Shown here piece by piece: positions 722 through 64,000 of a stretch of 64,000 nucleotides of DNA. The translations under genes were made by a program, and so were the position numbers. Position 1 is the first letter of the stretch, and every line of letters starts with the position of its first letter. The notes beneath the pieces were generated by a model. That model saw only the letters and a list, made by a program, of their open reading frames with translations. It had not been told where the DNA came from and did not search any database. Where the stretch lies: NCBI GenBank assembly GCA_964016885.1, contig OZ024754.1, forward strand, positions 2,046,001 to 2,110,000, given 5' to 3'. The stretch is from Eledone cirrhosa (taxonomy: Eukaryota).

Positions 722-761
<40 letters not shown>

Positions 762-796
762 GATATTAAACAAATGGAAATTACATTTATAAAACC

Positions 797-873
797 ATAT
801 TTATTTCATTATATATATTTCAGGGATATCATATTAAAAATATGGTATGCCCTCTTCAGACAAAATACAATAT
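797..873 (-). ncRNA. Minimal type I hammerhead ribozyme (family D, inverted copy)
   Basis: Reverse complement of the 2066-2142 motif, with better stem I pairing (UAUUUUGU/AUGAAAUA). Confidence 0.75.
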
Positions 874-2065
874 ATAGACAGTTTTATAAATAAATTTGAC
901 ATACCTTAGAGTTTACAACTTCCATTTAAAAAGTTGTTACGGTAGTGAAAATGTTAAGGACGGTTAGAAAGAAGTTTTTTTTTAATGATTTCTGCTAAAT
1001 AAGTTTGGTGAATAATTTTGGTTTTGTTTGCTTTTGACTCTGATTGCTTCTAATAAACTTGGCAATATTGTCAAATAAATTGGAGGGATTGATTGATATG
1101 CTGGGCACACTGTGTTTTTATTACGGCCCTAGATATTCTGGGGAGAAAAATATTCTTGGCGTTTTTAATATTTTAATATATTGATATCTGTTCTATTCTA
1201 TGCTTGTACGATATTCATGTAAGAAAGGGCAAGAATATTATTATTATTAATAATGTATATTTTATGTATATATATATGTATGTACACTTATGTGTATGGT
1301 AAAATCTTTTTAACGCAATGAAGAGTTCCATGTTAAATTAAAATTTACAGAGCTGATCATGTAAACTCACATGTGTCTATAATGTCAGTTTGAGATAACC
1401 TCTTTTTCTTTCTCTTTTCTCTTTTTTCATGAAAATACATATATACCTATGTATTCCAGTATTTTTTGAGGTTTTATCTCAGATTTTGATTATAAACCTA
1501 TGAATTTTTAAAATAAACATATAGTCACTATTTTTTCACACATTATTGATATGTGTCTCATTCATGAATATTGATGTTTACATTATAATTCATAGGAATT
1601 GATAGACTGATGAAACATAATATTTTAAAACTATCATTTTTGTTTCTAAGTATATCTCCTCTCCTCCTCCCTTCTACTCTTATATCGGCTGTTTTAACTC
1701 CATCTCCTGTATATCACCCCTCCCCTATCTCTCCCACCTCGTATAATAGATATTACTCGATCTACCTCTCATTTATTTTTGTTTTTATTTCTCCCCGTAT
1801 CCTTAACACTAAATAAATAAATAAACAAATGAATAATTACAGTAGCCTCTTCCCTCATAGATCTCTCATTTGGTGGTTTTCCCTTTACATACATTTCTTC
1901 ATCTTCTTCACCTTCCGCTCTTTTTTCTTTTTTTCTTTTCTCCTTTTTTCCTTTTTTCCCCGTCTTTCTTTCTAACCGTCCTTAACATTTTCACTACCGT
2001 AACAACTTTTTAAATGGAAGTTGTAAACTCTAAGGTATGTCAAATTTATTTATAAAACTGTCTAT

Positions 2066-2142
2066 ATATTGTACTTTGTCTGAAGAGGGCATACCATATT
2101 TTTAATATGATATCCCTGAAATATATATAATGAAATAAATAT
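2066..2142 (+). ncRNA. Minimal type I hammerhead ribozyme (family D)
   Basis: Stem I 5' AUAUUGUACUUUGU; core CUGAAGA 2080-2086; long stem II GGGCAUACCAUAUU-UUU-AAUAUGAUAUCCCU; GAAA 2118-2121; palindromic UAUAUA; UA with cleavage predicted after 2129; stem I 3' AUGAAAUAAAUAU. Confidence 0.75.
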
Positions 2143-2325
2143 GGTTTTATAAATGTAATTTCCATTTGTTTAATATCGTAAAATACTCCAAAACATGTTG
2201 AGTGCTTTTATATCAGTTATAAAATATTTACTCGTTGTAACCCAACATTTTAAATAAAACTTTTGCATATATATAAATATATATATTTATATATACACCT
2301 ATATATATATATATGTATATATATG

Positions 2326-2772: not shown

Positions 2773-3470
2773 AAAGAGAAAGTGACTTAGATAGATAGAT
2801 AAATAGATAGATAGAGAGAGAGAGAGAGTAGGGATGCATATATTCGTACGTATATAGTGATGTTGTGTTGCGCTTAATTGACAAAGACATAAGTATGTTG
2901 TTATAAATACAATCACTTACACATTCACGCTGGCAGACATACTTGCATGTAGATAGAAATATGCACGCACGAGACCAATTACTTGTCAGCGAAGCGCTAA
3001 CGCGTACATTTGCTCAGTGTTTCTACTCTATTAAATCCATACATAGAATTTATTATAAATATCACCCGTCTATATCAGACTAATTTTGTTCTTGTTAGTT
3101 CGATATTATAGTTGTTGTTGTTACTGAAATTCTTGTTTGATTCCTGTTGATATATTTGTGTGCCGTTGTTAATTATTCAGCGCCTATTCGTCGCTGATCA
3201 TGTAAACCTATCATCAAGAGAATTCTATCTCTGAGCATCTCGTCTTTATGTTTCTCGTTGTTTATCTCAGACTATATTCTCTGCTTTACCTTTTGCTGAA
3301 ATTAATTCGTATAACTGCTACTCTGTTGACCGTATTCACAATGGACGCAGTAAGGTCAAATTTAAAGGCTACGATATTCGTTTCACAATCATTAATTTCG
3401 ATGTTAAATACTTCTCCATATTGTCGTTTGTTATTTCTTCTGTTTCCCCCCCATTCCTACTTAGTGATGT

Positions 3471-3850
3471 CGCATGGCTTAGTGGTTAGAACATTGGGCT
3501 TGCAATCGAAAGGTTGTGAGTTCAATTCTCGGACCGGGTGGTGTGTTGTTTCCTTGAGCAAGACACTTTATTTCACGTTGCTCCAGTTTACTCAGCTGTA
3601 GAAATGAGATGATAGGATTGGGGTCCCTATCAGTAAACCACCCATCACACCTCCAACGAGGTATACCTTGGAAGAGGCCAGCTAAGCCTGCATAGGTGTG
3701 AGCTGTTACACACACACACTGTATGTAACCTGAAGGATTGTGCTTGTAATTCAAAGAGAGCCAGCCTTGCCAAACCTTATTTCACGATAAATATCCCTGA
3801 CAATTAAGTTATGGTTACACTTGTCTGTTTAGTATCAGAAACATATACTT
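3471..3850 (+). mobile_element. tRNA-derived SINE family 2
   Basis: A box tggcttagtggtt, B box gagttcaattc, central ccttgagcaagacactttatttcacgttgctccag motif. Confidence 0.8.
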
Positions 3851-9548: not shown

Positions 9549-10210
9549 GAGTTTCACTTGGGTATCACTTGGGTATCACTTGGGTATCACTTGGGTATCA
9601 CTTGAGTTTCACTTGAGTTTCACTCGAGTTTCACTCGAGTTTCACTCGAGTTTCACTCGAGTTTCACTCGAGTTTCACTCGAGTTTCACTCGAGTTTCAC
9701 TCGAGTTTCACTCGAGTTTCACTCGAGTTTCACTCGAGTTTCACTCGAGTTTCACTCGAGTTTCACTCGAGTTTCACTCGAGTTTCACTCGAGTTTCACT
9801 CGAGTTTCACTCGGGTTTCACTCGGGTTTCACTCGGGTTTCACTCGGGTTTCACTCGGGTTTCACTCGGGTTTCACTCGGGTTTCACTCGGGTTTCACTC
9901 GGGTTTCACTCGGGTTTCACTCGGGTTTCACTCGGGTTTCACTCGGGTTTCACTCGGGTTTCACTCGGGTTTCACTCGGGTTTCACTCGGGTTTCACTCG
10001 GGTTTCACTCGGGTTTCACTCGGGTTTCACTCGGGTTTCACTCGGGTTTCACTCGGGTTTCACTCGGGTTTCACTTGGGTTTCACTTGGGTTTCACTTGG
10101 GTTTCACTTGGGTTTCACTTGGGTTTCACTTGGGTTTCACTTGGGTTTCACTTGGGTTTCACTTGGGTATCACTTGGGTATCACTTGGGTATCACTTGGG
10201 TATCACTTGA
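9549..10210. repeat. 11-bp minisatellite (~60 units) G(A/G)GT(T/A)TCACT(C/T)
   Basis: Directly visible; variants are arranged in homogeneous blocks. Confidence 0.95.
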
Positions 10211-12349: not shown

Positions 12350-12615
12350 TATAAGGAAGTGTGGTAAGGAACCAGGTGGACCATAACGCACCAGAGTACT
12401 CGTTACTTTCGGTGGTAGAGTGGGTAATAGGAAAAGGGTCAGGACCATTCCTTTTGATAACTACAACCTTCAGATATGCCTGATTATCGCTTGCCCATAT
12501 ATGGAATTACGCCTTGAAAAGTTCGGCTATATGATTACCACGCTAAAAATGTAATTTAGTCCAGAAATAGCCGTCGAAACGGCTTGAGCTCTGCCGTCTG
12601 GGTCCTAACACTTTT

Positions 12616-12619
<4 letters not shown>
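12350..12619. mobile_element. Family A copy with additional internal sequence
   Basis: Minus-strand tail 12350-12445, ~110 bp of unique sequence, then plus-strand agtccagaaatagccgtcgaaacggc...cctat(ata)n. Confidence 0.7.
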
Positions 12620-12668
<49 letters not shown>

Positions 12669-13073: not shown

Positions 13074-13102
<29 letters not shown>

Positions 13103-13104
<2 letters not shown>

Positions 13105-29903: not shown

Positions 29904-31514
29904 GGCATAATGTGTTTGTATGTTTATATACGTGATTTGGTGTATCTGTTCCCACGTGTAAACTCGTGTGCGTTTTTGTATGTGCATATAAGTGAAAATG
30001 TGGTATGTACTAAGAGAATTGTTAAGATCTATGTGATAACAAGTTTCTCTACGACGGTGGGGATGAAGGAATAAGTTCTTTCAGACAAGGTTGGAATGTT
30101 TGAGATAAACTATAAAGAAACAAGCACGAAAATTAATCGCAAAAGAGAATGAAGAACGAAAGATCAGTGAAATGAAATATGACAGAACAAAAGGAATACT
30201 CCGGAAGATTACGAAGAAAAAATGGTCGATTTTTAATATTATAGTTCGTCTGTTAGGTTTGCTTGCGTTATTTCTTAGAAAGGTTATCTGGACATACTAA
30301 GGCGGTGTTTCATGGTGCTAATCTGTGTGATTTCCATTCCAAAAGATGAAGATTATTGTTCTTGTTTAGTAAAATGTGAAATATATCTAAACTACTTTTT
30401 AAAATTGATTGATGTTCTGATTTTGCCCCACTAGAAGATTATTCTACGTATTCAGGGTTCGTTATCTCGAGGAAGGAATTAAAAGAACGGAAAATATCTT
30501 TGTTCCTTGTTGTTTTCTTTTCGTTGATTATATTGCCAAAGCACTTTGTTCTGATGAAGAAGAATATTTTGAAATGATTTGAGGTGAGTTTGCTGACACC
30601 TTTCACACACTGTATCTTCTTCCATGATAAATAATAATAATAACAATTCTATTTAACCTAAGAGAGTAGAAGTTCGTTTTTTTCTGTGTCACGAATGTGA
30701 CGCAGAGAACTACATAACAAAAACACAGAGTTTTTGGCAAAGCGTCCAGACTTGTAATTTAGTTTCTCATAAAGAGTTCAGGATTAGGCACGTAACAAAC
30801 ATTTTGTGTGACGGAATAGCTGATGGAATATGCTGCTTTAATTCATCGACCCAAGAATCATGAATGGCAAAATGGACATCGGCTGTTATCTAGCACAAAT
30901 TAAATACACGTCAAGTCCTTTTGTCTTCCTCGCTCTCGACTCCACGACTTAATACTTAGAAATTTTAAACCTGATGAAATGCTTTTAATAGAATGGAAGG
31001 GACAGAACCAATGACATTTTTTAGTTCCTTAAATACTGACCGAATTCCTGCGGTTAATATATAGCTACACCAATGTGGAAGATAAGGACATTTCAGAAAT
31101 GTGATGTCCTAAAATAAAGTTACGTATTTACTGTTTATAGTATATTTACTAGTTGAATTAAGAAACCCATTTTTAGAAATTTTCTGCAAACATTTATAGT
31201 CTGTTAAGGCATAAAAACTAACTACGTCTAATGAGACACACAAAAAACGGAGGAGCATGATGATGGTCGCAAGAATTGCAAGAAATAGAAACCAAACTCT
31301 ACACGAAACCATATATCATGGAGAGGCAAAATTAATAAATGTTATCATAGATATAGTAAAAGTGGTCATAGCTGGAATGTCTTTTATCTTAGGTCTGCCA
31401 GGTCACAGCTGGAATTGAACTAAACAACAACAATATAAATATGCTATGAACTTCAGCTGCTAAATATAATTGCTAAGAGAAGTGATCTTCCGATTCGTTA
31501 ACTTTCATTGCTAG

Positions 31515-33380: not shown

Positions 33381-33434
<54 letters not shown>

Positions 33435-33460
33435 CGATATATATATATATATATATATAT

Positions 33461-33881
<421 letters not shown>

Positions 33882-34629: not shown

Positions 34630-34681
<52 letters not shown>

Positions 34682-34707
34682 CGATATATATATATATATA
34701 TATATAT

Positions 34708-35130
<423 letters not shown>

Positions 35131-35833: not shown

Positions 35834-36434
35834 CCAGCACGTGGGACCCCATTTGCTCACCATACATAGAGATGTGGAGGGCGAAAGAAATGAAGGCGAT
35901 GACAGTGGGAGTTCGTCTCTTCCACGTTCGGACCCAGCACGTGGGACCCCATTTGTTCACCATACATAGAGATGTGGAGGGCGAAAGAGATGAAGGCGAT
36001 GACAGTGGGAGTTCGTCTCTTCCACGTTCGGACCCAGCACGTGGGACCCCATTTGCTCACCATACATAGAGATGTGGAGGGCGAAAGAGATGGAGGCGAT
36101 GACAGTGGGAGTTCGTCTCTCCCACGTTCGGACCCAGCACGTGGGACCCCATTTGTTCACCATACATAGAGATGTGGAGGGCGAAAGAGATGAAGGCGAT
36201 GACAGTGGGAGTTCGTCTCTTCCACGTTCGGACCCAGCACGTGGGACCCCATTTGCTCACCATACATAGAGATGTGGAGGGCGAAAGAAATGGAGGCGAT
36301 GACAGTTGGAGTTCGTCTCTTCCACGTTCGGACCCAGCACGTGGGACCCCATTTGCTCACCATACATAGAGATGTGGAGGGCGAAAGAAATGGAGGCGAT
36401 GACAGTTGGAGTTCGTCTCTTCCACGTTCGGACC
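35834..36434. repeat. 6 x 100-bp tandem array
   Basis: ccagcacgtgggacccc recurs at 35834, 35934, 36034, 36134, 36234 and 36334; a few variant positions. Confidence 0.95.
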
Positions 36435-41513: not shown

Positions 41514-42050
<537 letters not shown>

Positions 42051-42317: not shown

Positions 42318-42710
42318 CGATTGTATTGTTATTTCTGTTTAACTTTTTCATACATACGCATATATATATATATATATATATTTGTGTGTGTATGTATGTA
42401 TATATATATTTGCTGTAGGTCAAGAAATTGTAAATATAGGATTATATGCTCTGGATTCACAAATACTAATATATTGACCATTACAGTTGACAATTCCCAC
42501 ATTACCACCATTAGCTTTGACAGAAACTACAAATTTAAACATAATAAACCATTATCTGGACAGAACAATTAAATTCTATATTTAATTATGTAAGTAAACT
42601 CCCATAAATTTGTTGGAGCTGTGAAACCTCTCTTTAAATGTGAATCACCATTATCACCTTTACTATTATCAAATTTATACTAGAAAATACTAATATATAT
42701 ATATATATAT

Positions 42711-43186
42711 GGTACATTTCTTTAAGTCGTTTGGAAGCCTCGACAATGCAGATGGGTAAATCTCCTGGTAACAAGATCCGGTGGTGGAGAGAGAGATGTA
42801 AGTGGGTGTTCGTTGAGATGTGTAGCGTGTATAAGACTGTAACGTGTAGAGGAATGAAGGAATGAGCGTAAAGGATAAAAATAAAAATAACAACACGAGA
42901 AAGAGTTACCTTGGGAGAGATTTGGGACAATTAAATCTCTCCCAAGGTAACTCTTTCTCGTGTTGTTATTTTTATTTTTATCCTTTACGCTCATTCCTTC
43001 ATTCCTCTACACGTTACAGTCTTATACATGCCACGCATCTCAACGAACACCCACTTACATCTCTCTCTCCACCACCGGATCTTGTTACCTGGAGATTTAC
43101 CCATCTGCATTGTCGAGGCTTCCAAACGACTTACAGAAATTTACCTTATTATTCCACAAAGCTTCAAGCAAACTTCAATACTCTCA

Positions 43187-62892: not shown

Positions 62893-62923
<31 letters not shown>

Positions 62924-63162
62924 CAGCTCAGATCTATGCAGGTTTAGCTGGCCTCCTCCAAGGTATATATCGTTGGAGGTGTCTTGGGTGATTTAATGAT
63001 AGGGACCCCAGTCCTATCATCTCATTTCTACAGCTGAGTAAACTGGAACAACGTGAAATAAAGTGTCTTGCTCAAGGAAACAACACATCACGGAGTCCGA
63101 GAATTGAACTCACAACCTTTCGATTGCAAGGCCAATGCTCCAACCACTAAGCCATGCGCCTT
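62924..63162 (-). mobile_element. SINE family 2
   Basis: Close reverse complement of 3471-3710; decayed relatives at ~14375-14570 and ~15105-15230. Confidence 0.85.
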
Positions 63163-63673
63163 CACATGCATGTATGTATGTATGTATGTATGTATGTATG
63201 TATGTATGTATGTATGTATGTATGATTGCAAAAATGTGTTGATATAGATGTCTGTGTAAGTGTTGTATGTATGAATGAATGTATGATTGCACATATATAT
63301 GTATATGATTGCTTATAGATGGACATTGTTGATTTGTAACATCATGTCAGGCTTCTGGAAGATTGTCAGGCTCTAACCACGTGGTTCAATAATTATTGCT
63401 CATGGGAATATATAGCAGACTAAAATATATCCGGAACCAGGCGCAGGTCCAGAGGAAGTTGACCATTCTGAGAGGGGGAACTGACTAAGCGAATTTCGTT
63501 GAAATCTACGGTAGCTAATGGTCAACTTCCTCTGGCCAGCGCCTGCGAAGACCGGTGGTGGTGAATTGGTACTCACAGGGGAACGGATGAAGAACCCAAC
63601 AGCACACACTTCGTCCGTTCCCATGTCGATTCAATTTGGATTGCCTCGGAAACATAACCTTATTATGTAACAA

Positions 63674-63747
63674 GCTGTCTGACGATGTCGCGACACTGGC
63701 ACACAGAACAGTGTGGACACTGTCGCCATTGAAATATATATCACAGC
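63674..63747 (+). ncRNA. Type I hammerhead ribozyme with extended stem II
   Basis: Stem I GCUGU/ACAGC is perfect; CUGACGA 63679-63685; stem II GCGACA..CACAC/GUGUG..UGUCGC with an irregular base; GAAA 63731-63734; UAUAUA; AUC triplet with cleavage predicted after 63742. Confidence 0.75.
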
Positions 63748-63793
63748 ATTATTATTAAAAGACTTGAACATCTGAAACTACTTCGCTTTTCCT

Positions 63794-63834
<41 letters not shown>

Positions 63835-63836
<2 letters not shown>

Positions 63837-64000
63837 AGTCGGGACCCTGACGGCTGAACTCTTGCCGAACAGCTAGTTTCAAACTGGATCTAGCTGTTTA
63901 AATAGCAAGAGCTCAGCCGTTGGTGTACCGACTCATTATAACAGAACCATACGCTACTACGCCAAGTATCCAGTACTCTGTCGAGTAATAGTCTAACCAG
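63835..64000 (+). mobile_element. Family A diverged fold-back mini-element (runs off window)
   Basis: gagtcgggaccctgacggctga...tcagccgttggtgtaccgactc plus start of tail (ctactac..aagtatccagtactctg). Confidence 0.65.

Follow-up and report, generated by a model that had tools for sequence, protein, structure and literature searches.

The repeat at positions 63468-63797 of the 64,000-nucleotide stretch of DNA analysed here (the window) is a copy of a very abundant family, with a type I hammerhead motif close to the 3' end of the copy. This copy is likely to represent the pLTR of a Penelope-like element (PLE) truncated at its 5' end, or else a non-coding derivative that is moved by a PLE. The copy and its immediate surroundings can be divided into the following features.

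63431..63467, minus strand: inverted (head-to-head) duplicate of the element's own 63517-63545, recognized by alignment, which supplies the left arm of a 19-bp stem.
63468..63797, plus strand: 5'-truncated copy of the very abundant repeat family, recognized by contig depth; likely the pLTR or 3' end of a Penelope-type element.
63471..63533, plus strand: hairpin formed without the inverted arm (z -1.88; 9 of 200 shuffles as stable), which holds the hammerhead-like remnant at 63481-63513.
63575..63626, plus strand: second hairpin, shared by the family but variable in its loop (z -2.84 for 63556-63640).
63674..63747, plus strand: type I hammerhead motif, core at 63679, predicted cut after C63742.
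63748..63797, plus strand: AT-rich end of the element copy, with (TA)6 at a distance of 54 nt from the cut.
63797..63834, no strand assigned: (TA)n microsatellite at the 3' junction, read from the sequence as the likely target site.

The motif at 63674-63747 contains every letter of a hammerhead core. The CUGANGA / GAAA / NUH core, with GAAA at 63731-63734 and AUC as the cleavage triplet, is closed by a 5-bp helix I; helix II is longer than 4 bp, and helix III is an 8-nt palindrome. The preliminary description of this DNA had reported an intact hammerhead core, and this holds for the core letters; it does not hold for the base of helix II, where U-U, G-U, U-A and C-C precede six Watson-Crick pairs and the G10.1-C11.1 pair is absent. 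The unpaired 9a base is likewise absent, and placing the strands in the 9a register yields a G-U followed by mismatches. Rfam returned no hammerhead or other family, either with the gathering score as cut-off or with E values as high as 10, apart from sub-threshold microRNA matches (see below), and hammerhead pattern scans gave no matches in metagenome contigs, viral contigs or prokaryote genomes. The lowest-energy fold of the monomer buries the hammerhead core (-23.0 versus -15.8 kcal/mol), in a comparison made with folding models that undervalue such cores. The 8-bp duplex that helix III can form between two molecules was computed at -3.2 kcal/mol.

Family members from public sequencing runs (see below) differ from this copy at several positions of the hammerhead, in a variant table that treats each position separately rather than by linkage on single molecules. 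The majority change C63683>T falls at the free position 7 of the core, the pair of majority changes G63690>A and C63726>T converts a helix II G-C into A-U, and the majority changes A63717>C and C63720>G mend two helix II mismatches. A further majority change, G63698>C, would disrupt pairing in helix II unless compensated by its partner, and the 40 of 91 variants listed contain no change of that partner. The same 40 of 91 include no family change at the U-U base of helix II.

The same anatomy recurs in the window in a second repeat family. A relaxed hammerhead scan gave eight rows, one of which duplicated the hammerhead at 2080 and was dropped. The rows at 30551+ and 48171- were also dropped because their helix III had two pairs and was not palindromic; a weak look-alike at 25480-25510 was rejected (nhmmer E 6.4). 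A strict motif, whose criteria were set after the relaxed-scan hits were known, occurs at five sites (63679+, 2080+, 859-, 41917+ and 45302+) and at none in 100 local dinucleotide shuffles. The last four of these sites group into a single sister family (nhmmer E at most 5.9e-7), which is represented by three loci.

759..2262, no strand assigned: sister insertion, an inverted pair with hammerheads 859- and 2080+ (759-973 on the minus strand, 1966-2180 on the plus strand).
41665..42016, no strand assigned: second sister insertion, a short inverted 3' end with tail, followed by a direct copy with a hammerhead.
45291..45387, plus strand: diverged sister hammerhead (nhmmer E 5.9e-7), with palindrome and C-C mismatch kept.

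Because 2080+ and 859- share one insertion, the independent evidence amounts to two families at four loci. All five motifs have a palindromic 8-nt helix III, with two different centres among them, and in all five the in-register helix II is interrupted at pair 4 by a C-C mismatch. At 45302+ the centre of the palindrome is changed and the palindrome is nonetheless kept. The 2017 study of Lunse et al. on dimeric PLE hammerheads may already describe the C-C helix II variant. The distance to the (TA)n repeat is also partly shared: (TA)6 lies 49-54 nt after the cut in three of the five motifs and 138 and 170 nt after it in the other two, with the 49-nt spacing found in two of the four sister hammerheads. 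The insertion at 759-2262 has a tail of about 85 nt at its right end only and (TA)n-like sequence at both ends. At 41665-42016 the direct copy (core 41917+) ends in (TA)n, and TA repeats flank both ends of the insertion.

These results bear on the proposal that the repeat is the end of some other kind of transposon, with a hammerhead appearance that is accidental or long dead. The missing Rfam match, the non-canonical base of helix II and the failure to find a PLE frame (see below) speak for this proposal. Against it are the five motifs compared with none in 100 shuffles, the identical anatomy in two families of different sequence, and the pair-preserving changes in helices II and III, and we regard it as very unlikely.

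The abundance of the family is evident from public sequencing data. A search listed eleven public runs, eight of them with part of the stretch; none is recorded as RNA, and hence they are silent on expression. Four runs (X1 and X2, which come from one sample, X5 and X9), representing at most three samples, were aligned at 80% likeness to a 561-nt stretch; X4, X6, X7 and X8 (small shares) and X3, X10 and X11 were left out. The alignments comprise 1928 contigs from X1, 1862 contigs from X2 and 2438 reads from X9, some of the aligned contigs and reads sitting on the simple repeat at 63264-63305. The flank at 63335-63429 has a depth of 0 in all four runs, and the runs therefore describe the family rather than the insertion at 63468-63797 itself.

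Summed contig depth in X1 and X2, a quantity distinct from copy count, is about 1-3 x 10^4 over 63468-63524, 3-6 x 10^4 over 63544-63619 and up to 2.2 x 10^5 over 63620-63790. The depth thus climbs about tenfold from 5' to 3', as in 5'-truncated retroelements. Compared with single-piece depths near 10, these values suggest a family of about 10^4 copies. In X5, one contig of 318 nt spans 63468-63752 with 30 differences. Past 63797, contigs of X1 and X2 and 248 X9 reads continue into an optional extension, which in X9 starts like the tail of the sister family. Two of the 14 joints listed are strand-switch joints inside the element, each in one contig. None of the go-back joints lies within 63468-63797; the two go-back joints among the 14 joints listed both fall in the simple repeat. 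No second copy of 63468-63797 was found in the window by repeat comparison or nhmmer. The locus had previously been put forward as a mobile-element candidate in the form of a two-hammerhead retrozyme monomer. The first part of that proposal stands, in that the sequence is multi-copy rather than single-copy and belongs in the Penelope/retrozyme neighbourhood; the monomer is considered below.

The folding of the element was also correctly anticipated in the preliminary description. The region 63431-63800 is highly structured as RNA (z = -7.13, with none of 100 shuffles equally stable), and each of the reported stems is present: the perfect stem 63449-63467/63517-63535 (19 of 19 pairs), its CAGGCGC/GCGCCUG extension at 63438-63444/63539-63545 (7 of 7 pairs), and the second stem 63579-63592/63609-63622 (14 pairs including one U-G). 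The window is AT-rich (24-41% GC per 2 kb) and dense in microsatellites and dispersed repeats; the reported GC-richness of the element holds relative to this background and not in absolute terms (49.7% for 63431-63750). The overall composition of the window is of the kind seen in animal nuclear genomes, and its repeat landscape looks cephalopod-like.

The 19-bp stem has a particular origin. Positions 63438-63467 match the reverse complement of 63517-63545 in 28 of 30 columns, and upstream of 63468/63469 the contigs of X1, X2 and X5 carry a different sequence, common to them and unlike that of the window. Both arms have C-T at 63532-63533, where most family reads have T-C, arguing that the inverted arm was likely copied from the 63468-63797 copy or a close parent. 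When the inverted arm is omitted, the element still folds well (z -4.32, compared with -7.52 with the arm; 60 shuffles each). This implies that the second hairpin and helix II belong to the family at large and that, judged from sequence, the 19-bp stem is a copy-specific by-product of an inverted duplication at the 5' junction, not a family feature. The family sequences agree with the pairing in the second hairpin: G63613>A converts its U-G into U-A, and an X2 subfamily has a different loop together with two stem changes that preserve pairing. The GC-richer part of the element also contains words at 63525-63547 that we take to resemble ETS- and NRF1-type promoter sites, and these would fit the internal promoter carried by pLTRs.

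A perfect 19-bp stem with flanking pairs might instead mark a functional hairpin or small-RNA locus, in which the stem is kept as a substrate for Dicer or ADAR; a hairpin source of small RNAs was the other option raised in the preliminary description. Weak matches to microRNA families point in the same direction, the best having E 0.003 and 25.8 bits. This score is far under the Rfam gathering threshold of 56, the loop measures 49 nt, and the stem is explained by the copy-specific inverted duplication, so that this is the least probable of the explanations that we weighed.

A different origin that deserves mention is that the repeat is the solo offspring of a tandem non-LTR retrozyme, whose arrays, located elsewhere, would consist of units longer than 330 nt with one hammerhead each and would release circular RNAs. 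The family is non-coding, very abundant, about 50% GC and structured even without the arm, and its sequence continues past both ends of 63468-63797, all of which would suit such an origin. In addition, dispersed monomers of retrozyme families have been described, and retrozymes are proposed to derive from pLTRs (Li et al., 10.64898/2026.07.22.740005). On the other hand, the steep gradient of depth toward the 3' end fits truncation better than units of equal length, the window holds no second copy, and the 14 joints listed include no go-back joint inside the element. This last test is weak for longer units because the contigs are short. On balance a retrozyme parent is unlikely, and a truncated PLE end remains the better reading of the depth profile.

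The two-hammerhead monomer was based on a second hammerhead-like motif in the apical loop of the first stem. A motif is indeed present at 63481-63513, 229 nt upstream of the predicted cut, in which helix II has 4 bp and helix III possibly 3 bp; what it lacks is G8 and helix I. Position 8 of the remnant (63486) is U where the core needs G8, and U at this position of a hammerhead cannot pair with C3. No helix I could be formed beside the remnant core in either cleavage register, and within its own hairpin the motif is base-paired. The remnant-type pattern, by criteria fitted after the fact, occurs in 12 of 20,000 shuffles, and the whole window contains one such site. Because the pattern is rare in shuffles, the remnant may be an old hammerhead relic. 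Its likeness to the downstream hammerhead is no better than that of shuffles, 302 of 500 of which score as well.

The family data speak against a second active hammerhead. T>G at 63486 does not occur at a frequency of at least 8% in any of the four runs (X1, X2, X5 and X9); each run has exactly one T>G place at or above that frequency, and since this place is 63559 in every case, G8 is not restored at that level. The change A63513>G, carried by the X5 contig and by 152 of the 665 X9 reads, alters the triplet of the remnant to GUG. The preliminary description had envisaged a monomer of about 230 nt, excised by two hammerheads 229 nt apart and then circularised, and had tied this model to an upstream motif that would read CUGANGA in the family consensus. 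The family does not restore that motif at a frequency of 8% or above in the four runs. With G8 unrestored, the triplet altered, no helix I and no go-back joint in the element, the model is left unsupported, and we consider it highly improbable even though the upstream motif is more hammerhead-like than shuffled sequence.

The organization of the insertions is consistent with a PLE end. The many variant contigs and the depth that rises toward the 3' end correspond to the dispersed 5'-truncated copies of PLEs. An inverted truncated copy next to the element is represented here by the short inverted piece, and the optional tail on one side by the family reads that continue past 63797; the full pattern appears at the two sister insertions. 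To its right the element adjoins (TA)n and to its left ATATAT, a setting in which a target-site duplication is indistinguishable from the repeat itself. A PLE reverse transcriptase plus GIY-YIG frame tied to this family or to the sister family was not found in the window: Pfam, applied to 15 read-through frames and to 99 of 150 picked frame segments, detected no PLE frame, a word search found none, and the HMMER search returned three repetitive, unrelated proteins. Just upstream of the 859- hammerhead, at about 944-1252 on the minus strand, is a stretch that may be the heavily decayed end of an endonuclease frame; neither Pfam nor HMMER confirmed it.

The history of the insertion might be reconstructed as follows. 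A PLE endonuclease would nick a TA-rich site, and reverse transcription would start at the 3' end of the element and stop after about 330 nt. The new DNA would then fold back and copy about 30 nt in reverse, which would give rise to the 19-bp stem. Where tandem or inverted copies are transcribed, two hammerheads are predicted to pair through the palindromic helix III as an 8-bp intermolecular duplex and to cut after C63742, so that a precursor RNA would be trimmed. A lone copy such as 63468-63797 is predicted to cut slowly or not at all.

A more far-reaching reading can be built on the same observations. The two families would carry a lineage-specific hammerhead subtype, defined by a long in-register helix II, the invariant C-C at pair 4 and the 8-nt palindromic helix III, on PLE-derived repeats with about ten thousand copies. 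One of the families would be a non-coding, SINE-like parasite that also has a dead second hammerhead, the relic of an earlier retrozyme stage. Copies residing in host transcripts would use the palindrome to pair in cis or in trans and would cleave host RNAs, while the inverted junctions would feed double-stranded RNA pathways. We judge this elaboration distinctly unlikely, and return to a PLE end as the preferred reading.

The remainder of the window is repetitive. It contains no long complex reading frame and, according to ARAGORN, no tRNA genes. A C2H2 zinc-finger match at 17131-17301 on the minus strand, slightly below the Pfam cut-off (E 3.4e-5), may be an exon or a remnant. Tandem repeats include an 11-bp minisatellite of 59.7 copies with 98% matches at 9551-10207 and a 100-bp repeat of 6 copies with 97% matches at 35834-36434, and there are near-perfect long DNA palindromes at 42707-43149 (95% over 448 bp) and 26081-26286 (93% over 206 bp). 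A SINE-like repeat is present as inverted copies at 62910-63165 and 3464-3719, 91% alike over 256 bp, the former lying about 270 bp upstream of the hammerhead element. Immediately to the right of the (TA)n microsatellite, 63834-64000 belongs to a palindromic repeat family that is unrelated to the hammerhead element, forms a long hairpin (z -8.51) and has many copies in the window. Related copies are found near 476-704, 12353-12660, 13077-13332, 24440-24981, 33421-33675, 34668-34922, 45972-46206, 51347-51586 and 55588-55840. This family consists of a hairpin of about 110 nt plus a 3' extension, usually adjoins (TA)n, and keeps its hairpin pairing across diverged copies; it could be MITE-like or another PLE-related end.

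Hammerheads at PLE ends are widespread and known, and the repeat at 63468-63797 therefore mostly adds a family to them. The C-C helix II mismatch, common to two families of distinct sequence, would constitute a structural variant that Rfam models miss. The case also illustrates that a striking perfect RNA stem can be a mere by-product of insertion. If hammerheads of so abundant a family do cleave as dimers, the family would provide a natural system for learning what PLE hammerheads do.

No report of the family was found in the open literature, a corpus that omits most subscription papers and repeat databases. A short-word search of the supplement to PMC8557442 gave no match to it, and the main text of a paper on Octopus vulgaris repeats (PMC13282606) mentions neither hammerhead nor ribozyme. 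Among known systems, the metazoan non-LTR retrozymes (Cervera and de la Pena 2020, PMC7229834) resemble the family in being non-coding, structured and of high copy number and in having a type I hammerhead. In the 63674-63747 motif, as in the axolotl hammerhead HHR_Amex2, helix II has a U-U mismatch at its base; HHR_Amex2 was still 22% cleaved in one hour (PMC7229834). However, non-LTR retrozymes are described as tandem units, each with a hammerhead, whereas here there is one hammerhead, no neighbouring unit and no tandem joint.

PLE insertions offer a second comparison (Craig et al. 2021; Arkhipova et al. 2013). Those in the literature are truncated at the 5' end, lie next to an inverted copy, prefer (TA)n as target and in some cases have a tail (PMC8557442; PMC3846280), and self-priming has been proposed for the inverted junctions (PMC3846280). 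Truncation, a head-to-head inverted copy, a one-sided tail and (TA)n are all found in the window. Unlike in the published PLE insertions, the inverted piece at 63431-63467 is only about 30 nt and internal, and the one-sided tail of the sister family is about 85 nt compared with 30-40 bp. Among PLE clades, Naiads are reported to be without canonical hammerheads, which the others have (PMC8557442; PMC3846280).

The metazoan PLE hammerheads themselves (Cervera and De la Pena 2014, PMC4209133) are described as type I motifs in which helix II is long and helix III is a small palindrome, mostly present as solo copies linked to truncated PLEs, and they cleave weakly even as dimers (PMC4209133; PMC6765202). 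Their published consensus has the 9a bulge and G10.1-C11.1, with exceptions (PMC4209133). The motifs described here differ from that consensus in being without 9a and G10.1-C11.1, in having C-C at pair 4 in five of five cases and, for the 63679 family, in starting helix II with U-U; in addition, no PLE frame was seen beside the 63674-63747 motif. Among pLTR hammerheads, those described here come closest to the variants from Drosophila and Aedes whose helix III is palindromic (PMC4209133). With the pLTR hammerheads, the family shares a type I topology, a complete core, a short helix I, a long helix II and a palindromic helix III, along with AU-rich flanks, mostly solo dispersed copies and a predicted dependence on dimerization.
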